64,000 bases of DNA from an uncultured Chloroflexia bacterium. Lineage in GTDB: Bacteria > Chloroflexota > Limnocylindria > Limnocylindrales > CSP1-4. A program made the position numbers and the translations under genes. Shown piece by piece: positions 8,184-32,713 of this stretch; position 1 is the stretch's first letter, and each line of letters starts with the position of its first letter. Location: NCBI GenBank assembly GCA_963819655.1, contig CAWFXA010000002.1, positions 576,001-640,000 of the forward strand, read 5' to 3'. The notes beneath the pieces are model-generated. The model was not told the origin of the DNA. It saw only the letters and a list, made by a program, of their open reading frames with translations, and searched no databases.

Positions 8184-8954
8184 TCGGTCCGCGCGCTCGT
8201 CGGCTGGTGCTGGTCGCGCTCGTCGCGGTCCTGTGCGCGGTCCTGGCGATCGAGACGATCCAGCTGTATTTCATCATCGACGGCCAGTCGGCGATCGGGA
8301 CCGATCTCGACTACTACCGGTTCGTGGCCGAGCGGTTCGTGACCACGGGCGTCTACTACACGGATGAGCAGCTGGCTGGTCCGTATGTCGTCCAGACCCA
8401 GGTCCACAACCTGTATCCGCCGCACGCGCTCTACCTCTTCGTGCCGTTCCTCTACTTGCCGGACATCCTCTGGTGGGTCGTGCCGCTGGCGTTCCTGGCC
8501 TATGTGATCTGGTGGTGCCGGCCGATCCCTTGGGCCTGGCCGGTCCTCCTGTTCCTCCTCGCGCTGCCGAAGGGTCCGGCCCAGGTCCTGTTCGGCAACA
8601 CCGACATGTGGATCGCCGCGTTCGTGGCAGGGGCGGTGCGCTGGGCATGGCCGGGCGTGCTGGTGTCGATCAAGCCATCGCTCTCGCTCTTCGGCTTCCC
8701 GGGCGTGCTGTCGCGTGCCTGGTGGCTCGGGGCGGCGGCGTTGGTCCTCGTCAGCCTCCCGCTGTGGACGTACTGGCTGCCAGTACCCCGTGATCACCCA
8801 GAATTCGAGCGCGCAACTGTCGTACTCGTTCGGAAATTTCCCGTTCTTCGTCGTGCCGATCGCCGCGTGGATGGGCTCGTCGCGTCGCGGCGACATGCCC
8901 GTCAGCCGGTGGTTCCTGGCGCTGCTCGGGCGCGGGAAGCCCGATCAGAGCTGA
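8180..8954 (+). CDS. GT87-like membrane protein (frameshift near 8780)
   Basis: GTDLDYY, LYPP, FGN, SIKP motifs parallel GT87; C-terminus in ORF 8715..8954. Confidence 0.65.
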
Positions 8955-10402
8955 CAGTCGGACAGGTCGCTCCGGACGTGGATCGACGCCTGTCCGTCGC
9001 GATACGCGAGACGCCAGTCTTCCGCCTCGGTCAGCCAATGGGATAGCGGCCCGGTGACCGGCATGAGCGCGATCTCGACGGCGTGGCCGTCGAGCCACGG
9101 TCGCGGATCGCCGGTCACCGCCTCGACGGCAGCCTGCTCCGCGAGCGGGCCCTCGGCGGAGTTCCCGTACGCCCCGACGTCGCGACCCGTCATCTCGATC
9201 ACGTAGCCGGCCCAGCCATACGCCGGCAGGATCCGGCCCGCGCAGGGTTGCGCCTCCAGGACGTCGAGGGCCACGACCGGCTGCCGGTGCGCGATCGCGG
9301 CCGCCTGGGCAGACGGCATGATGAACGACCAGCCCACCGCCAGGATGGCCAACGACGCCACCGCCGCGGTCGCGATGAAGAGCGCCGGGCGGGGAGCAGA
9401 CGGTGGCGCATCGCCCACCCTGACCGGCCCGATCCCCAACCATCGCGCGACAGACGGCCCGATCGCCGGGGCGGCGGCGGCCACGACGACCAGCGCGGCG
9501 ATCGGTAGGAACCGCACGGCCCCGAGTGCTGCGAAAGTCCAGCCCGCGGCCGTCAGCAGCAGGAACGGGTCACGCCCGCGCCGCGGCCAGGCGGCGGCGA
9601 GCAGGAGAAGGCTCGCGACCAGCACCCGGGCAACCAGCAGCTCCGGGGCACGGAAGTCCGGTGAGCGCCATTCGATGATGTCGAACGAGAACGCGCTGGC
9701 CACCGCGCGATCGAATGGATAGAGGAGCAACGCGGGGCCGTACGGATTGAGCATCGCCGCCACGAGCGAGGCCGCGGCCGCGACCGCGAGCGGTGCGACG
9801 CGCCGTCCCGGCCAGACGCCCCAGCGTGCCCCGATCGGCAGCGCGAGCAGGCCGATGGCGAGCATCGCCACCAGGCCGAGGAGCGCGCTGCCATGGAGGT
9901 TCGCCCACAGCACCCCGATGAACGGCAGCGCGAGCAATGCCGTCCGCGTCCCGAGCCGGAGGTAGCTCGCGATCGCGAACGCCGTCGCCAGGACGAACAG
10001 CACGTCGAGCGTCTGACCGCGCGGCGCCCACAACGGCAGCGACGCGACGACGCCGAGGACGACCAGCGCACTGCGCGCGATGGGCGGGATCCCCGGGGCC
10101 GCGATCCCGATCAGCGCCCATGCTGCTGCGAGGATCCCTGCGGTGACCGGCACGACGAGGAGGCTCGTGCCGGTCGCACCGCCGGCGCCGTAGGCCATCG
10201 CCATCAGGACATCCCAGAGCCAGCTGTGCGCGACGAATTGATCACCCGCCGTCAGCCAGCTGAACGGGTCGGTCGCCGGGATCCCGCCAGCCAGAACGGC
10301 TTTCCCGATAGCGATGTGCCACCACGCGTCCGGGTCGACCTGGGGGCGCCAGGTCGCGACCCACGCCGCCGCGAGGAGGATGACGGCGATCGACCGGCCC
10401 AT
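8945..10402 (-). CDS. Polytopic membrane protein, GT-C-like (DPDxWWH / WANLHG family)
   Basis: DPDAWWHIAIG, DPFSW, HSWL, LWANLHG, NPYG, IIEW; multiple TM helices. Confidence 0.7.
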   Translation of the reverse strand: MGRSIAVILLAAAWVATWRPQVDPDAWWHIAIGKAVLAGGIPATDPFSWLTAGDQFVAHSWLWDVLMAMAYGAGGATGTSLLVVPVTAGILAAAWALIGIAAPGIPPIARSALVVLGVVASLPLWAPRGQTLDVLFVLATAFAIASYLRLGTRTALLALPFIGVLWANLHGSALLGLVAMLAIGLLALPIGARWGVWPGRRVAPLAVAAAASLVAAMLNPYGPALLLYPFDRAVASAFSFDIIEWRSPDFRAPELLVARVLVASLLLLAAAWPRRGRDPFLLLTAAGWTFAALGAVRFLPIAALVVVAAAAPAIGPSVARWLGIGPVRVGDAPPSAPRPALFIATAAVASLAILAVGWSFIMPSAQAAAIAHRQPVVALDVLEAQPCAGRILPAYGWAGYVIEMTGRDVGAYGNSAEGPLAEQAAVEAVTGDPRPWLDGHAVEIALMPVTGPLSHWLTEAEDWRLAYRDGQASIHVRSDLSDCQL

Positions 10403-24624: not shown

Positions 24625-25257
24625 TTAGGACGCGCTCGGTGAGGCGCTAGCCGCCGGCGTGGCGCTCGGGGCGACCGATGGAGCCGCGCTCGGGCTTGCC
24701 GAACCGCTTGGGCTCGCCGATCCGCTTGGGCTCGCCGATCCGCTTGGGCTCGCCGAACCGCTCGGGCTCGCGCTCGCACTCTCGCTGGGGCTCGCCGACG
24801 GGGTCGGGGTCGGCAGCGGACGCAGGAGGCCGCCACTCCCCAGCAGGATGCCGTTCAGCAGGATGAGGACGAAGACTGCGACCGTCCCGATGACGAACCA
24901 CTTCGAAACGTCGTCCTTGACATGGACCGCGATCTCGGATGGCGAAGGCGCCCGAGTCGCCGGGGTGGTGGTGCCGCTTCGGCGCTTGGCCGCCGACGTC
25001 CGCCGCTCGGCCGCGGCAGGGACGGCCGCGTCACCGCCGATCTCGCGGACCGCGGCATCGTAGTCGTCGATGTCCGCCTCATCGGCCTCGATCGCTTCGG
25101 TCTCCGCCTCGTCGAGGAGCTCTGCCTCGATCGCGTCGGCGTCGACGTCGTCCGGCCGCTCGCCACCGTCGTCATCGAGCTCGTCATCGATGTCTTCAGG
25201 GTCGTCGTCGATCGGCTCGAGCGGTTCCTCGGGCGCGCCGTCACGGGGTTCGGTCAC
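24625..25257 (-). CDS. Hypothetical single-pass membrane protein with acidic N-terminus and Ser/Pro/Ala tail
   Basis: D/E-rich first 70 aa, one TM helix, (SASPSG)n tail; AGGAG upstream of GTG. Confidence 0.7.
   Translation of the reverse strand: MTEPRDGAPEEPLEPIDDDPEDIDDELDDDGGERPDDVDADAIEAELLDEAETEAIEADEADIDDYDAAVREIGGDAAVPAAAERRTSAAKRRSGTTTPATRAPSPSEIAVHVKDDVSKWFVIGTVAVFVLILLNGILLGSGGLLRPLPTPTPSASPSESASASPSGSASPSGSASPSGSASPSGSASPSAAPSVAPSATPAASASPSAS
24690..24800 (-). repeat. 18-bp tandem coding repeat (SASPSG, about 5 copies)
   Basis: gggctcgccgatccgctt-type units repeated. Confidence 0.85.
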
Positions 25258-25338: not shown

Positions 25339-27381
25339 TCAGGCCTCGCGGACCGCCGGCACGAACCAGCCCGCCAGCCCCGCCACCGCGGTGACGATGC
25401 CGAACGCCGCGATGACCGTCGTGACACCGATGACCTCGGCGAGCACGCCACCCAGCCCGATCGCCAGCGTCATCGCCCCGAAGACCAGGGAGAAGCGGAA
25501 GCCGATCACGCGACCGATGAGGTTGGGCGGCGTCCGCTCCTGGAACAGGGTCTGGCTCGGGATGATGAAGACCATGTTCGCGATGCCGATGCCGAAGGCG
25601 ATCGCCAGGACGACGCCGAGGTTGTCGGACAACGCCATGAGTGTCGTGAGCAGCCCGAGCACGGTGTAGCCGGCGATGATCATCCGGCCCTTCGCCAGCC
25701 GCGCGCCGATCAGACCGATCACGAACCCGCCGATCAGGTTGCCGGCACCCTGACTGCCCTCGATGAAGCCGTAGACAGCCTGCCACTCGAACCCCTGGCT
25801 GCCGAAGACGCGCTCAGCGAAGACCGCCGTCTGGCCGATGAGCACCCCGATCGTCAGCTGCGCGACGACCGCCTGTAGCGTGTTCGCCAGCAGGACCGGT
25901 TCGTTGCGCAGGAAACGCCAGCCCGCCACGAGCTCGCTGCGGAACCCGGTCGATGCCGGTTCGCCGTTCGCATCCTCGGTCGCCGGGCGCGGCATCGGCC
26001 GCGGGATCAGCGTGCTCAGCAACAGCGCCGAGGCGAGGTAGGTCGCCCCATCGAACCAGAACGCGACCGACACGGCGTTGGCGACCAGTGCGACGAACAG
26101 GCCGGCCAGCGGGAACCCGATGACGTCGGCGATGGTCTCGCCGACCCACAGCGCGGAGTTCGCCGTCAGGAGCTCATCCTCGCGGACGAGTCGCGTCAGG
26201 ATCGCGACCCGCGCCGGCCGGAAGAAGATCGAGATCGTGGTCAGCAGGAACACCAGCGGGTAGACGAGGAAGATGTTGGTCGACGCCGCGATCGGCATGA
26301 TCAGGACGACCGCCGCACGGAGGATGTCGCTGACGACCAGCACTTCACGGTGGTCCCAGCGATCGACCAGCGTGCCGGCGAGCGGGCCGAAGAAGAGGTT
26401 CGGCAGGGTCGCGGCGACGAACACGAGCGCGACCGCGATCGGCGAGTCTGTGACAACGAAGACGATCGCCGCGATGGCGACCTGGTGGACACGATCGCCG
26501 AACAGGGAGATGAGCTGGCCCGACCACAACGCGGTGAACGATCCATTCAGCGCGAGGCGGACGTACGGATGCCGTCGGAGCCGTGCCACGACCTCCGGGG
26601 AGAGGCGTGGGATCGGCAGCGTCGGCGCCGTGGATAACCCGGGCGCGCCACCCGTGCCCGGTCCACCGCCACCGACGGTCGAGGTCCCCGGCGCGGCCAG
26701 TTGTTGTCGCCCGGTGCCGAGGACGGTCGGTCGATCGAGCGCCGCGGATCGCTCGAGACCGGGCGTCAGGCCCGTGATGCCTCGCTCGCCCGCCAGTCGC
26801 CGCCGGAGCTCGGCGTCCTCCGACTCCTCGGTCGGTGTCGGGACGCGCACGACACCGGCAAACAGGAAGAACGCGAGCCCGAGCGTCAGGAACACGTCGC
26901 CGAGCGAGTACACGTTGCGGATGACAGCGACCGGCACGGGTATGACGTCGCCGAGGATCAGCAGACGTCCGAGGAAGTCGGGCGAGGCGGCATCGACGAC
27001 CGTGTGGAATGCCCGGTCGACGTCGGCCTCGGTCAGACCGGCCGCGACAAGGGCCGGCTGCCAGATCGGCATGAAGCCGTTGTTCGCGACGATGACCAGC
27101 GTGTTCGTCAGGACGCCGAGGAATGCCAGGCTGAGGCCCGGGTACGAGCGATTGACCCAGAGCGCCACGAGGAGCACGACGAACGCCGCGGTGAGCAGCG
27201 GCAGCCGGAATGCCTCGACGATGCCGATGTGCGCGCCGAGCGCCCACTCGGTGGCGTAGCGCACGACGACGGCGGCGACGAGCAGCCACGTCCAGCGCAG
27301 CTGGATCTCGGCGAGGTTCCGGAGCCGCCCTCCGGCGAGGAGACCGAGGACTAGCCCGAGCAGGATCCCGCCGATCAGCAT
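25339..27381 (-). CDS. DUF5317 domain (aa 1-178) fused to an MFS transporter
   Basis: N-terminal GGRLRNL, NTLVIVANNGFMP, LGDVI, VYSLGD; Gly/Pro linker; MFS motifs LWSGQLISLFGD, GTLVDRWDHREVLVVSD. Confidence 0.82.
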   Translation of the reverse strand: MLIGGILLGLVLGLLAGGRLRNLAEIQLRWTWLLVAAVVVRYATEWALGAHIGIVEAFRLPLLTAAFVVLLVALWVNRSYPGLSLAFLGVLTNTLVIVANNGFMPIWQPALVAAGLTEADVDRAFHTVVDAASPDFLGRLLILGDVIPVPVAVIRNVYSLGDVFLTLGLAFFLFAGVVRVPTPTEESEDAELRRRLAGERGITGLTPGLERSAALDRPTVLGTGRQQLAAPGTSTVGGGGPGTGGAPGLSTAPTLPIPRLSPEVVARLRRHPYVRLALNGSFTALWSGQLISLFGDRVHQVAIAAIVFVVTDSPIAVALVFVAATLPNLFFGPLAGTLVDRWDHREVLVVSDILRAAVVLIMPIAASTNIFLVYPLVFLLTTISIFFRPARVAILTRLVREDELLTANSALWVGETIADVIGFPLAGLFVALVANAVSVAFWFDGATYLASALLLSTLIPRPMPRPATEDANGEPASTGFRSELVAGWRFLRNEPVLLANTLQAVVAQLTIGVLIGQTAVFAERVFGSQGFEWQAVYGFIEGSQGAGNLIGGFVIGLIGARLAKGRMIIAGYTVLGLLTTLMALSDNLGVVLAIAFGIGIANMVFIIPSQTLFQERTPPNLIGRVIGFRFSLVFGAMTLAIGLGGVLAEVIGVTTVIAAFGIVTAVAGLAGWFVPAVREA

Positions 27382-27414
27382 CGCGTCATGATGCTGGAGC
27401 GGGCTTCGGCTTCG

Positions 27415-28816
27415 TCAGGCCTGCTCGGGTGCCTGGGAGGGGACCGGCAGCGAGCCGGTGGCGGGCGGCTCGGCGAGCCGCGTGGCGGCCGCCTGACCGA
27501 GAAGGGGGATCGGTCGCGGCTGGACGGTGCGCCCCGGATCCGCCACGCCTTCGACGTGGTGGGTCTTGACGAACGCATCGACCACGACCGGATCGAACTG
27601 GATGCCCGCGAACTTGCGCAGCTCGGCGAGTGCCTGCTCGGCGCTCAGCGGCGTCATGCGATACGGCCGGGCGGCGGTCATCGCCTCGAATGCGTCGGCG
27701 ACGTGCAGGACGCGGGCGAGCTTCGGGATCTCGTCGCCCATGAGGCGGTCGGGGTAGCCGGAGCCGTTGTACCACTCGTGGTGGTGGCGGATGATCGGCA
27801 GCTCGGGAGCGAGCTTGGTGACCGGCGCGATGATCTGCGCGCCCAGCACCGGGTGCGCATTCATGATCATCCGCTCGTCCTTGTTCAGCCGCTCCTGCTT
27901 CAGCAGCACCCGGTCGGGGACGCCGATCTTGCCAACGTCGTGGAGCAGGCCGCCCCACTCGAGCGCTTCCAGCTCGCCATCGTTGACATGCATCACGCGC
28001 CCGATGTCGACCGCGATCTCCTTGACCCGGTGGCTGTGCTTCGCCGTGAACGGGTCGCGTTTGTCCACTGCCTCGGCCAACGCGCCGATCGTCTGGGTGA
28101 ACATCTCGCGCATCTCGATGAAGCGCGCATACGCAAGCCGGGTTGAGTACAGGGGAACCGCGAATAGAGCGGTCGCCCACCATTGGACTGCGTAGACCAC
28201 AGTCATTAGCCAGGACAGTGGCGCCAGGGCGACAACGCCCCCGAGAATCCCGCGAATGTCACCAAGGAGCACGTCTCGAGGCGACTGTCCCGTTCGGAGA
28301 CCAAGTGCGATCGAGACGAGCACCAGATTGAGCGCGATAAAGAGCAGCGCGGCGGCCATGCCAGACGCGAAGTCCCAGGCAAGCCGCCCCCAAGGGTCAG
28401 CAGGACCTCACGCAGGGTCCCGGCGAGGATCGCAGGTACGACCAAAGCTGCGTGATTGGCAAGCGTCCCGTACCAAGGAATGCGACCTCGGATCTCGCGA
28501 AGTTCGGTTGTACCAATGGCGGCAACCCACCCAGCGACGGCGGGCCCGCCAAGGAATAGCGAACCCATGATTGGAGCAATCGCAACGGCCTGTTGCGTTC
28601 CACGAGGCAGCTGTACGGGGAAGGCAGACCCAATAGGGTAACGACAATCCAGTGACAAGACGCCAAGCGCGAATTCGGGAGCGGTTGGAGCGCCACTTGA
28701 GCCCGGAGCGCAATCGCGATCGCGGGCTTGGCGGGAAACAGAAATGTCGCGGCCACCAGCGCGAACGCACCGATGACCACGACGGTCGCGACGTAGAGCT
28801 TGAGGGACTTCGGCAT
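27415..28816 (-). CDS. Membrane-anchored HD-GYP cyclic dinucleotide phosphodiesterase (sensor part frameshifted; start approximate)
   Basis: DKRDPFTAKHSHRV, LLHDVGKIG, HHHEWYNGSGYP, VADAFEAMTAARPYR, GIQFDP; N-terminal TM sensor pieced from three frames. Confidence 0.88.
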
Positions 28817-28884
28817 CGTTCCTGGATCGGCCACCGACCTCACTCTACGGCCAACGCCGCGAGCAGGGTAATGGGCCATCCGTA

Positions 28885-28974
28885 CTAGAAGCCCCTAAGA
28901 GAAGCCCCTCCGGCAAGCGCAATCATCGCCACGCTCGTGAGCGTGACGATGATCCGCATCAAACGGACCTTCAC
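28885..28974 (-). CDS. 29-aa signal-peptide-like putative precursor MKVRLMRIIVTLTSVAMIALAGGASLRGF
   Basis: Read by hand: AAGGA 7 nt before GTG 28974, TAG at 28885-28887; basic N-terminus, hydrophobic core, LAGG, short polar tail. Confidence 0.75.
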   Translation of the reverse strand: MKVRLMRIIVTLTSVAMIALAGGASLRGF

Positions 28975-28984
28975 TGGAGGGTCC

Positions 28985-29014
28985 TTACCAGGCCTTCGCG
29001 GACTCGGGAGCCAC
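28985..29014 (-). CDS. Putative 9-aa upstream ORF MAPESAKAW
   Basis: AAGGAGG 7 nt before GTG 29014; its TAA overlaps the RBS (TAAGGA) of the 29-aa ORF. Confidence 0.35.
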   Translation of the reverse strand: MAPESAKAW

Positions 29015-29048
29015 GGACGTTCCTCCTTCGCGGCCTCCGTGCTCTGAG

Positions 29049-29085
29049 GAACACGAAAACCGACCTGACTACCAGTCGGTCGGTT
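29049..29085 (-). terminator. Intrinsic terminator forming the riboswitch expression platform
   Basis: Minus strand AACCGACC-GACtggtaGTCa-GGTCGGTT followed by TTCGTGTT; 5' arm is the aptamer 3' end. Confidence 0.55.
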
Positions 29086-29156
29086 GCACTAGTCGCTCCG
29101 CCGCACCCTAAGTGCCCATTTCAGGTGCGGCATCGCTGCGTCCGGTATTGACGATT
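29070..29156 (-). ncRNA. c-di-GMP-II riboswitch
   Basis: Minus strand CGGACGCAGCGATG-CCGCACCT-GAAA-TGGGCACTT-AGGGTGCGG-CGGAG-CGACT-AGTGCAACCGACC; carries the class II hallmarks TGGGCACTT and AGTGCAACCG (GCAC/GTGC pseudoknot); sits upstream of an HD-GYP gene. Confidence 0.82.
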
Positions 29157-29161
29157 ACTTC

Positions 29162-29179
29162 CTAGTACTGGGGTACTAG
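29162..29179. promoter_or_regulatory. Perfect inverted repeat CTAGTAC-N4-GTACTAG, candidate operator
   Basis: AT-rich palindrome immediately 5' of the riboswitch. Confidence 0.4.
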
Positions 29180-29242
29180 TAAGTTGGCCGGACTTTAGGT
29201 ATCCGCAAGTAGACCGGTCAATACGGCACCTTACCTATCTGT

Positions 29243-32200
29243 CTAGAGCGATTCGAGGGGCGGTGGCTCCACGCCCATCTCGTCCCGCATCACAGCGGCG
29301 TAGTGCGCGTACTGCTCCGCGGCCGCGGAATGAGCGCCCGTCACGCGATACAGCCGCAACAGGCATACCTCGATCTGCTCGGCAGTCGGATCAACTTCCA
29401 ACGCTCGACGCGCGATCGTGATGCCGCGGTCGTAATGGCCCGAGGTGAAATCGTCGAGGACGGAACGCTCAACAATCTCTAGGTACGTCGCATGGAGGGT
29501 GTCGCGATACGCGGCCGCCCATTCCTCATACTCAAAGTCGAGCGCGAAACGGCCACGATAGAGCTGCGTTAGGCGATCTACTTCGTCGGGGCTCGGTCGA
29601 CTCGGCAGGTCTCGAAGTAGGTGCCGGCACTCGACACTGCGGCTTGAAACCAGCTCCGAATCAAGCCAGACCACGTCCGAGTCGTGGTGCACATAGCCAG
29701 GAGAAAGGTCGTCGGAGTAGTTCTCTTCAAAGACTCGTCGTAGGAAGTAGACGTCTGGTTCAGGGAGTTGACCGCTACCTCAGGGTCAAGTTCGGGCCAC
29801 AGCGCATCAAGGACTTGGTCACGCGTGGCGATCAGATCGGGGCGCGTGATCAGATAGCTGAGCATGGCCAATACTTTTCGCCGGATTGCTGGAACCAAGG
29901 ACAATTCGGACTCCCGATTTCCAGCGAGATCCGACCTTGATCCTCTACTTTCACAGTATCCGCGAGCCGTCGCGCTAGCGAGCGACCCAAGATTGCCGCG
30001 TCCGGACGTCGGTCGGGCGGAACGGCGAGACGACGAAGACGTGACGATGTCGCTGCGATCGCCGATGGACTCGAGTAGCCGTGCCGCTGGCAGATTGAGA
30101 TCGCGAGTGTCCTGATCCAGCCCCTGACGAAGGGCAGTGCGCCAGCGGTCAGGGTGTAGGGCAGTCGTTTGAGGAGACGAGACTAAACGTTGCCGCCTTC
30201 AGGTTCGGCAGGTGTGGAATCAAATCCTCCGCCAGGAAGCTCAGGTGCCAAGGCGACGATTGGCCGATCACGTCGATGGTTCGATGAGCTCGTCGGGACC
30301 AAGAACGGTCGAAAGGAGGAGTTCGCCCGTTCGTCGGACGCCGGTCGCACCCTGTGCAGCGGCAAAGTCTGTCGAATCGCGCAGCAGTTGGTCGATCGCC
30401 GAGCGATCACCTCGGAGAAGCGCTAGGTGGGCCTTTGTCATTCGAATGCGGACGTGACACCAACGACGGTCGGGAGTCCTGTGGGAAGGCAGTCGACTCC
30501 CGCTCGCACCAGGTGTCGCGATCGCCGTATTGCCATTCTCGCTCAGCTAGGGCCAAGCTGCCGGCGGTCTGCGACTGTGTGGGTTGAATGAGTCACCAAC
30601 TCGATCGAGAACGTCATCGCGACGAGTCGGGACGCAGAGCGAGTCGAAGGCTTCGGCCGCGTCCGCGAAGGCCTCGGTGGGGATGTACCGCGAGGCATCA
30701 GAGGTCATTCCAGAGACAAGGTCAGTGCCTCTGGTTGCTGCCTTAGTCGCAGAAGGATCGACGCCTGCAAGGACACTAGCCGCCGAGTGCTCGATCGCCC
30801 CCGTCGTCCCTTCAAGGGCCTCGAGCGCCGCTTCTGCGGCCTCTTCGAGTGCGTCATCGGTTCGATCCTGAACGAGCGAGTTCAACGCGAGGTTGAGCAT
30901 GGTGACGCCGTAGTGGTGACAGCTGTCACACGTTGTACCTGTGCCATGGCGCGGAGTCGACGATTGATCGCGTCCAGGTCTTCTCGTCTTTGGACGATCA
31001 AGGACGATATCGGCGACCTCCGCTATAGCACGCAAGTTTGGGTCAGCTGTTAACGCGGCCAAGCTTCGTCGACCAAGTCCAGGGCAGTTCTCCGTTTCCG
31101 AAGTTGAAGTTGACGAGCGTGATTAGGTTGAGCAGCGCGTGGTCTCGCTGCATGGGGTCGGTGACGCCCGAGTCGAGGACGGCTTGGCTCGCGGTTATCG
31201 CCGCTTCGTAGTCGCCGTGCTGCATATCGACCCGGCTGATGATCAGGTCGAAGCCGGGCGGTCGCTCGTGCGCCGAGATCGGGCCGATGAACGCCTCGGC
31301 CAAGGCGTATTGGCCATTCCCCATGATCGTCGGGATTGCGCCGGCGACCACGCCGAGCATCGCCTCGATATCGCCCGCCTCGCGATAGTGATGTGCCGCG
31401 ACCTTCCAGTCGGTGGCAGCCGCGGCCGCCGCCGTCCTGCGGTGGAGTGCCGCGACGGCGTCGGGCCCGTCCATCGACCGAAAGCGCGCCTCGAGGAACC
31501 CGCGAACCAGCGGGTGGTAGCGCTGGTGGGTCCGCGGACCGCCGGACAGGCGGCTGAGTAGCGTCAGACGTTCTGCGGCTGCCGTCAGTCGAGCGACATC
31601 GGCCGAGTCACGGCCCGACGCGACTTCGGCGAGCTCCGGTGTCACCACCTGCAGGATCGAGGTCTGCATCAGGAAGCGCTGCAGATCCTCCTCGAGGTCT
31701 CCGACGACCTCCTCGGCGAGATAGTCATACAGCTCGTGGTCCGCTCCGGTGAGAGTCCGGACGAAATGGCGGATCTCGGCCGGCGACCGATCGCGCAGCG
31801 CCGCCTGGACGAGTTGGAGCGATGCGATCCATCCCTCGGTGCGCACGGCGAGGTCGGCGAGGACATCGGGATCGATGCGCCGGCCATACGTCTCGGTGAA
31901 CAGCTGGGCGGTTTCCGCAACATCGAAGCGCAGCTGGTCGGTGCCGAGTTCGGCGACATCGCCCACGGCGCGCAGCTTCGAGAGCGGGATCGCGGGCGCA
32001 CGACGACTGGCGAAGACCAGTGTCAGGCGCTCCGGCGCGCCACCTACGAGTTCGCGCGCGAGGTACCGGACATCTGCCGCATCGTCGACCAGGTGGAAGT
32101 CGTCGAATACCAGGGCCGCGCCGCCCACGGCGATCGACGGCAGCTCGCGAATGAAGCTCTCGACCGCTGCTTCGCGTGACGGGCCGCCGCCGCCGGCCAC

Positions 32201-32713
32201 CTTCGCAAGGAGGTCCGCTGTCGCCGACGCAAAGCCAGGCTCGTGTTCGCGACCTGCGGCGATCAGGTGGTGGAGCAACGTCACCCAGTCGCGATCGTCG
32301 GGGTCGAGGCGATACCAGAGAGTCCGCAACCGGCTGCGTCGAGAGAAGTCGGCCAGCAGCGTCGTCTTGCCGTAGCCCGCATCCGCGAGGATCAGGACGA
32401 CGCGACCGTGGATCTTGACCCGGAGCCAGTCGAGCAGGCGCGGTCGTTCGAGCGTCTCGTCGCGGAGCGCCGGACGCTGGACCTTCGCGATCTGGATCGG
32501 GTAGCCGCCGCCTTCGTCGCTCAGGTGGGCACTCCTGGACGGCTGCGTCAGGGCCGGGCGACCCGAGTCTACAGAGGTCGGCGCGGGCCCCATGACCGAC
32601 CTGAGAGACGGGATCGTGCCGGGCCGCGCGAACGATATCGACCCCTCGCGTGGGGTGTCAACGGAGCCGATCGTGGGGCGGTCGGGCATGGGCGCCATGG
32701 TGGCGCCCTGCAC
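29243..32713 (-). CDS. MalT-like STAND ATPase with C-terminal wHTH/BTAD (SARP-type) regulator, heavily frameshifted 29.7-31.1 kb
   Basis: AKVQRPALR..LERPRLL, Walker A ADAGYGKTTL, Walker B LVFDDFH, RTEGW, YDYLAEEV, RYHPL; C-terminal TRDQVLDALWPE and LYRGRFALDFEYEEWA. Confidence 0.78.

Follow-up and report, generated by a model that had tools for sequence, protein, structure and literature searches.

What sets the activity of membrane-anchored HD-GYP phosphodiesterases, which are common and whose input is obscure? We address this question with a locus in a 64,000-nt stretch (the window) of contig CAWFXA010000002.1, assembly GCA_963819655.1, from an uncultured Chloroflexia bacterium of soil. Here a riboswitch for cyclic di-GMP (c-di-GMP) leads an operon that encodes a membrane-sensor HD-GYP protein and a DUF5317 domain fused to a transporter of the major facilitator superfamily (MFS). 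Read 5' to 3' on the minus strand, the locus runs from a promoter-like site through a palindrome, the aptamer, a terminator-like hairpin, two micro open reading frames (ORF1 and ORF2) and the HD-GYP gene to DUF5317-MFS, with a regulator gene upstream (Table 1; coordinates are those of the window). The original prediction, made from the DNA letters, had listed the regulator, the palindrome, the riboswitch with its terminator, the 29-aa ORF2, the HD-GYP gene and the DUF5317-MFS fusion, and all six were found on the minus strand where it placed them. It had missed the 9-codon ORF1 with its strong Shine-Dalgarno sequence, as well as the frame breaks that the HD-GYP and regulator genes carry in this assembly. 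The locus provides candidates for the obscure input, namely the ORF2 micro-protein and DUF5317, and their pairing may be the input to this class of HD-GYP sensors.

Micro-proteins beside DUF5317 across the phylum

If the pairing is meaningful, DUF5317 genes elsewhere should have an HD-GYP gene and a small ORF at their side, as the original prediction expected. This expectation was borne out when 20 loci of the phylum with a stand-alone DUF5317 gene, all from other genera, were inspected, and a general lack of small ORFs there, which would have spoken against it, was not seen. An HD-GYP domain lies within 2.5 kb in 15 of these loci, on the same strand in 14, and three of the 15 have the gene order HD-GYP, MFS, DUF5317. 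At the density of the window's own genome, about five HD_5 genes per 3.5 Mb, chance adjacency would be expected at less than 1% per locus. All 20 loci have a micro-ORF of 24 to 47 aa at the start of the operon, similar to ORF2, with a basic N-terminal end, a hydrophobic helix and a small-residue motif ending G-A-[PDSGN]; the tails that follow comprise 3 to 17 residues, often with W or F last. Thirteen of these micro-ORFs were called by a first rule and the other seven by a looser one. A single strict rule gives a match at the expected place in 11 of the 20 loci and one match elsewhere in 481,990 strand-bases, and on the own genome it gives 8 matches in 6,975,556 strand-bases, ORF2 among them. 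At four loci (L074, L083, L086 and L091) the micro-ORF stands directly ahead of DUF5317 with no HD-GYP gene. HD-GYP genes also adjoin DUF5317, in convergent orientation, at five of five loci from one lineage of Acidimicrobiia, where a 31-aa ORF of the same build was present in one of the three loci whose other strand was inspected. As gene neighborhood, these loci show an old phylum-wide core of micro-protein and DUF5317, usually beside a membrane HD-GYP gene.

Judging by gene content and order, the operon is conserved across Limnocylindrales-type Chloroflexota; near relatives bear the NCBI names Candidatus Limnocylindrales and Chloroflexota. The DUF5317-MFS fusion occurs throughout the genus and in all sampled genomes of two families (16 of 16 in f1, 15 of 15 in f3), in a tally of 301 genomes that includes the unpublished G278. 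A set of 20 loci represents other genera and family f3; local profiles recover the order sensor, HD-GYP, DUF5317, MFS in 18 of them, the exceptions being a locus cut by a contig end and L070, in which the order differs. Literature searches found nothing on this type of locus.

The pattern of substitution marks ORF2 as a real gene under purifying selection. Its C-terminal motif is present in 32 of 35 genus segments, the three without it being one N-masked locus and two others. Codon analysis used 24 intact copies, after 11 were dropped for frame breaks or for want of a start or the motif. Over the last 16 codons of these copies, entropy is 1.27 at third positions versus 0.09 at second positions, and 2162 pairwise codon differences are synonymous versus 417 non-synonymous. 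The product, encoded in the same operon as the sensor, has a hydrophobic stretch of about 17 to 22 residues that would form a single helix, and the build [basic]-[hydrophobic]-A-G-G-A-[SGT]-x-[KRT]-[GP]-[FWL] recurs in this position in 15 of the 20 loci that represent other genera and the second family, f3. Conservation is centered on the extreme C terminus, and Cys is absent from all 39 aligned sequences. This micro-protein is conserved yet missed by ordinary gene callers.

ORF1 is found in 33 of 39 loci with 8 to 10 codons, its length shifting only in three-base steps, and ends 2 to 30 nt ahead of ORF2. It closes with K-[GAS]-[WFY], where substitutions retain an aromatic residue, and its tail has the same five-residue build, resembling S-x-[KR]-G-[FW], as that of ORF2 (S-A-K-A-W and S-L-R-G-F in the window). 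ORF1 may duplicate the tail as a cytoplasmic twin, be exported as a peptide or serve as a coupling device for the translation of ORF2. A riboswitch leader that carries two selected genes of this size is, as far as is known, an unusual arrangement for c-di-GMP riboswitches. Pfam searches with five micro-proteins gave nothing above chance, and the ESM Atlas returned unnamed clusters of 32 to 47 aa and a weak DUF7503 lead at 0.76 to 0.86.

Several loci deserve mention in their own right. L070 (G177:C3, 2041-4811) is a second copy in one f3 genome, with an HD-GYP gene followed by a fusion in the reverse order, MFS-DUF5317; a c-di-GMP-I-GGC riboswitch (61.1 bits) follows closely on the strand of these genes. 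In L073 (G148:C28), two identical tandem 31-aa micro-ORFs (1805-2057 as oriented) precede the sensor-HD-GYP-DUF5317 genes, and a c-di-GMP-II-GAG variant riboswitch lies upstream at 8575-8658 (40.9 bits versus a cut-off of 40). L095 to L099, on contigs of Acidimicrobiia metagenome-assembled genomes, have DUF5317 in convergent orientation to a tandem pair of HD-GYP genes, of which one is weak against the profile, an arrangement that recalls the hdgA-hdgB pair of Streptomyces. L091 contains a c-di-AMP (ydaO-type) riboswitch at 9593-9729 (97.7 bits), 3 kb from the micro-ORF/DUF5317 pair.

The riboswitch, the sensor enzyme and DUF5317

The aptamer matches RF01786 over all of the model (positions 1-84 of 84) with 62.2 bits versus a gathering score of 53.5. 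The terminator-like hairpin (29081-29058) is followed by a T-run, and one such structure was found versus 0.3 expected in shuffled sequences. The 3' end of the aptamer doubles as the 5' arm of this hairpin, so that the expression platform is coupled to the aptamer; because of this overlap, ligand binding should favor read-through, and the switch would work in the ON direction. Of 61 genus genomes, 39 have RF01786 above its cut-off, as have 11 of the 20 loci that represent other genera and f3, and the riboswitch lies 1.1 to 2.1 kb ahead of the DUF5317-MFS gene in 15 of 15 genomes whose coordinates were compared. Contigs from RNA libraries span 29000-29153 and 28751-28945; their source may be carried-over DNA, and they are no proof of expression.

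The palindrome CTAGTAC-N4-GTACTAG occurs once in the window, where chance would give 0.02, and adjoins the promoter-like site, just after it on the minus strand. Of 99 fetched loci, 36 have it, and only L061 among these is from outside the genus. Its half-site CTAGTAC recurs at the end of ORF2 (28885-28891), where all 24 intact copies stop with TAG and TAC follows, and is kept in the genus alignment; this second copy could be an operator half-site or an RNA pairing partner. The own genome contains another c-di-GMP-II-like aptamer at C3:757400-757484 on the minus strand (52.5 bits, just below the cut-off), directly ahead of a gene for a signal-peptide protein that is followed by an ECF-sigma-like ORF.

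Table 1. Features of the locus in window coordinates
Feature	Position	Strand	Basis or remark
DUF5317-MFS fusion, intact 680-aa ORF	25339-27381	minus	DUF5317 residues 25-173; DHA3/MFS_3-type transporter residues 280-673
Membrane-sensor HD-GYP phosphodiesterase gene	27415-28816	minus	catalytic part 27415-28359 in one frame; sensor part 28360-28816 split
ORF2, 29-aa micro-protein with basic N-terminal end, hydrophobic helix, tail GGASLRGF and TAG stop	28885-28974	minus	ORF list, conservation
ORF1, 9-codon micro-ORF, VAPESAKAW	28985-29014	minus	genus alignment; Shine-Dalgarno GAAGGAGGA at 29021-29029
Intrinsic-terminator-like hairpin and T-run	29051-29085	minus	bases shared with aptamer 3' end; kept in genus alignment
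c-di-GMP-II riboswitch aptamer	29071-29152	minus	RF01786 covariance match
Perfect palindrome CTAGTAC-N4-GTACTAG, 18 bp	29162-29179		between -10-like box and aptamer
Sigma-70-like promoter match TTGACC-18-TAAAGT	29192-29221	minus	consensus match only
Regulator: STAND NTPase (MalT-like), TPR-like middle, winged helix-turn-helix and BTAD (SARP)	29243-32713	minus	single gene in relatives, several frames here
Block 1, low GC, fast-diverging, indel-rich	28100-28999		HD-GYP sensor part and both micro-ORFs
Block 2, low GC, fast-diverging, indel-rich	29900-31099		regulator middle, presumed sensor part

The HD-GYP gene matches HD_5 with 131.4 bits, and its HD and HD-GYP motifs, LHDVGK and HHHEWYNGSGYP, are intact in translation (the second is given as HHExh(D/N)GxGYP in the part consulted of bioRxiv 10.1101/2021.11.05.467447). 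The gene is whole, at 463 to 486 aa, in 12 of 13 listed genus relatives, while its sensor part is spread over three frames in this assembly. MASE9 (PF20972) matches the window's sensor piece with 17.8 bits (E 0.0032) and one of two intact orthologues with 17.9 bits (E 0.0031), both below the gathering score of 24.3. An N-terminal extension from an ATG at 28879 was rejected, as it is not kept in relatives.

As far as is known, the only membrane-anchored HD-GYP protein studied so far is HdgA (vnz24090) of Streptomyces venezuelae, which, in the parts consulted of bioRxiv 10.1101/2021.11.05.467447 and PMC6205966, joins a polytopic membrane MASE9 N-terminal domain to HD-GYP. HdgA gave no phenotype according to PMC6205966, whose authors think that activating signals were probably missing. 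In both proteins a polytopic membrane N-terminal part precedes an HD-GYP domain that keeps its motifs, and the input signal is obscure. They differ in that the MASE9 match here is below the cut-off and in that the consulted text of the two papers (PMC6205966, bioRxiv 10.1101/2021.11.05.467447), which served for the comparison in place of the Streptomyces locus, does not mention a riboswitch, micro-ORFs or a DUF5317 partner.

DUF5317 (PF17248) is recognized in the fusion with 88.3 bits versus a gathering score of 25. The MFS part scores 88.1 versus 27 for MFS_3, 86.6 versus 33.4 for MFS_1 and 185.8 for TIGR00900, below the cut-off of 319.6 for the last, and is closest to exporters of the H+ antiporter, Mef, EntS and Tap types. 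There are 619 longer homologues, and the best 120 of the 619 all combine DUF5317 and MFS; the two are fused in both orders and are neighboring genes elsewhere. An alignment of 48 sequences has invariant G17, N77, G82, G89, N93, N100, M104, P105, D145, G161, D162 and G168 and a near-invariant S159, and a larger alignment has a near-invariant His. The AlphaFold model of DUF5317 (pLDDT 90.3, pTM 0.84) has five helices and a small beta domain (residues 100-159) in which most conserved polar residues are located. Judging by its charge distribution and by the MFS fusion, DUF5317 would have an N-out/C-in topology with the beta domain outside.

Searches for a known relative of DUF5317 gave little. Foldseek against the PDB yielded no match to a solved fold (best E 1.9), and a wide VIA-align search with the model returned generic helical bundles only (best Z 8.9), from which newness of the fold does not follow. 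Pfam found only the DUF5317 and MFS families in the 680-aa protein, with no similarity to AgrB or a peptidase, and full-text searches for DUF5317 or PF17248 found no paper. A likeness to GxGD-type aspartyl proteases or prepilin peptidases, suggested by the two invariant Asp residues, had no support from any computation, and a catalytic role of DUF5317 is possible and unsupported. Complex prediction with the sensor, DUF5317 and an orthologous 35-aa micro-protein scored 0.54; replacing the peptide gave 0.00 and 0.00 and replacing the sensor gave 0.66, and the prediction is not used as evidence for or against. A stand-alone DUF5317 paralogue in the own genome (C1:507319-507915) lies directly after a GGDEF-EAL gene (region C1:504513-507915).

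What the micro-protein and DUF5317 may do

In the model that we favor, high c-di-GMP would cause the class II aptamer to fold and withhold the 5' arm of the terminator, and transcription would continue. The transcript would yield the two micro-gene products, the membrane-sensor HD-GYP protein, which would lower c-di-GMP, and DUF5317-MFS, the net effect being a riboswitch-gated negative feedback on c-di-GMP. Most likely the ORF2 product inserts as a single-pass micro-protein, N-in/C-out, and the end of its helix and its short tail would meet, at the outer face of the membrane, a polar cluster of DUF5317 formed by the invariant D145 and D162, the near-invariant S159 and the near-invariant His. 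Through this module of micro-protein and DUF5317(-MFS), the HD-GYP sensor would then have its activity set from within the membrane, the micro-protein being either a subunit or a cleaved substrate of DUF5317. The feedback was already part of the original prediction, and the overlap of aptamer and terminator and the intact HD-GYP motifs fit it, with the ON direction of the switch still conditional. For the general model, riboswitch-gated feedback with the micro-protein/DUF5317(-MFS) module as membrane input, our confidence is evenly divided.

Several points weigh against it. The links among micro-protein, DUF5317 and HD-GYP protein are all of gene neighborhood, not physical or functional, and only charge and hydrophobicity speak for the orientation of ORF2 in the membrane. 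As stand-alone loci, the 20 top-scoring matches with room on their contigs were taken, a non-random set in which kin are not independent, and the looser micro-ORF rules were tuned by eye after the first examples had been seen, which is why one strict rule was fixed. ORF1 is left unexplained, its counterpart being absent from all 20 stand-alone loci outside this class. In the own genome, a search around the two DUF5317 paralogues gave no micro-ORF, and one of the two (C1:611955-612500) has no c-di-GMP gene beside it. Finally, in the present assembly neither the HD-GYP gene nor the regulator gene forms an open reading frame.

The question then becomes whether the micro-protein stays in the membrane. 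Following the original prediction, ORF2 could instead encode the precursor of a released signal: DUF5317 would be a membrane peptidase that cuts near G-G-A/S, the MFS part would export a product or the 9-aa ORF1 peptide, and the HD-GYP sensor or the STAND/TPR regulator would read the short [SG]-x-[KR]-G-[FW] sequence as a signal of the autocrine or quorum type. We regard this as doubtful and rate a resident subunit somewhat above it. The build of ORF2 is indeed precursor-like, with its basic end, helix, G-A-[PDSGN] and short tail kept beside DUF5317 across the phylum, and the tails vary between lineages while being fixed within them. A cleavage enzyme would also be consistent with the two Asp, the Ser and the His that DUF5317 holds next to the membrane, a released peptide with the tail build shared by ORF1 and ORF2, and export with the fusion to an MFS part of exporter type. 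Specificity regions of pherotype loci are fast-diverging, and the input halves of both signaling genes lie in fast-diverging, low-GC blocks. However, DUF5317 has neither a Pfam nor a solved-fold link to AgrB or to any peptidase; the site that would yield GASLRGF or ASLRGF is a guess. Unlike diversifying pheromones, the ORF2 tail is invariant across a genus in which neighboring proteins differ by up to 45%, and conservation includes the helix, which a resident membrane protein fits at least as well. Moreover, the three loci with a separate MFS gene lack ORF1, and the operon has no Cys in its peptide, no histidine kinase and no Opp-type importer. In its fullest form, DUF5317 would be a new membrane peptidase family that matures micro-protein precursors spanning the phylum, with short C-terminal peptides as ligands of MASE9-like HD-GYP proteins that set c-di-GMP by cell-cell or autocrine signals, to which Limnocylindrales would have added the riboswitch, a twin cytoplasmic peptide and pherotype-like specificity blocks in sensor and STAND/TPR regulator; this we consider quite unlikely. 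Were the peptide reading true, it would connect peptide signaling with the turnover of a second messenger in a large soil lineage without cultured members.

Two explanations dispense with a peptide signal. DUF5317-MFS might export a small molecule or lipid, with the micro-protein as accessory subunit, a role that small proteins play in some pumps, and the HD-GYP protein sensing the substrate or the state of the membrane. The kinship of the MFS part to exporters, its union with DUF5317 in either order or as a neighbor, and the four loci that pair micro-ORF and DUF5317 without an HD-GYP gene are in keeping with such a transport or envelope module. Yet an MFS gene accompanies only 3 of the 20 stand-alone loci versus 15 for HD-GYP, so that the steady partner is the signaling enzyme and not the pump; the twin tails, too, would go unexplained, and we judge the module unlikely. 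Far less probable is that the peptides are inert and act in cis, with translation or ribosome pausing at [KR]-G-[FW]-stop tuning the downstream genes. The positions would suit leader peptides: both ORFs are placed after the terminator and ahead of the first long gene, a strong Shine-Dalgarno sequence precedes ORF1, which ends close before ORF2, both share their three final residues plus stop, with ORF2 always using TAG, and the micro-ORF is always the first gene of its operon. Against this, the hydrophobic helix of ORF2 is under selection over its whole length, and the same build occurs where a riboswitch is lacking and where the tails are of quite another kind, in some cases with no aromatic residue at the end; the conservation of TAG-TAC is also explained by the CTAGTAC half-site.

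Known systems resemble parts of the locus. Riboswitches for c-di-GMP often precede genes of c-di-GMP turnover, and like other RF01786 operons this one has a full-length aptamer above the gathering score and an intrinsic terminator that shares its bases; it differs in having two conserved, apparently translated micro-ORFs between terminator and enzyme gene and in running on into DUF5317-MFS. MgrB-type proteins are short single-pass regulators, made with their sensor, that close a feedback loop. ORF2 would be similar in being short, single-pass and co-operonic with a sensor on which it may act in such a loop, with the differences that the putative target is a c-di-GMP phosphodiesterase and not a histidine kinase, that DUF5317 is a third conserved partner and that there is no sequence relation. 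The original prediction had drawn its parallel with agr, the peptide signaling system of AgrD, AgrB, AgrC and AgrA. The likeness to agr and to RRNPP/SHP systems consists of a short precursor-like ORF by a polytopic membrane protein, an exporter, a membrane sensor and an upstream cytoplasmic regulator with a TPR-like middle. With no Cys in the peptide for a thiolactone ring and no histidine kinase, the system is not agr-type. A response regulator is likewise absent from the operon, the ORF2 tail does not diversify within the genus, and DUF5317 has no detected relation to AgrB or site-2 protease, though the searches cannot exclude one.

Frame breaks and the upstream regulator

The broken HD-GYP and regulator genes raise the question of whether the locus is a decaying relic in this genome. 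Compared with G072, the closest genome found (~85% identity), there is no gap across 25400-28099. Identity falls to 69 to 75% in block 1, versus 85 to 93% in its flanks, and to 66 to 77% in block 2, which blastn could not align to G064, G070 or G024. Both blocks have lower GC (0.61 to 0.63 in block 1) and many 1-base indels. Within about 330 bp of the HD-GYP sensor part there are four indels that change the frame relative to G072 (28382, 28636, 28656 and 28704), and there are many more in the middle of the regulator. The number of these indels, their position outside long homopolymers and the lower GC of the affected stretches would be expected if the sensor part and the regulator were true pseudogenes, a reading that we nevertheless consider decidedly unlikely. 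The breaks are limited to the two diverging blocks, a pattern expected of a consensus over mixed strains. Other genus assemblies with few contigs break the same genes elsewhere, and assemblies with many contigs have them whole. At 28382, contigs from three short-read DNA studies all have an extra base, two of them differing at the other three sites as well; these contigs are from relatives at ~88 to 99% identity and not from this strain, and no sequencing run contained more than 0.16 of the words. In addition, both micro-ORFs, the riboswitch and DUF5317-MFS are intact in the window. The frame breaks are thus very probably consensus errors, from long reads or a mixture of strains, in strain-variable stretches.

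The regulator, in pieces in the window, is a single gene of about 1150 aa in five relatives, and by its domain matches is a MalT-like STAND protein with SARP output. In the intact orthologue of G007, residues 78-470 match positions 5-390 of the MalT model with 177 bits, far below the equivalog cut-off of 537, and AAA_16 and AAA_22 match the NTPase weakly. Its C terminus matches Trans_reg_C (31.2 versus 26.2) and BTAD (50.5 versus 22.1), and residues 621-806 have no match in the window. It thus shares a MalT-like NTPase part with MalT and a Trans_reg_C/BTAD module with SARP regulators, and differs from them in carrying the SARP DNA-binding module at the C-terminal end of a MalT-like NTPase/sensor and in its hypervariable middle. 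At the other end of the locus, the next gene downstream of the operon (24625-25257, minus strand) encodes a 210-aa protein that is very acidic over its N-terminal half, contains one hydrophobic helix and ends in ASPSGS-type repeats.

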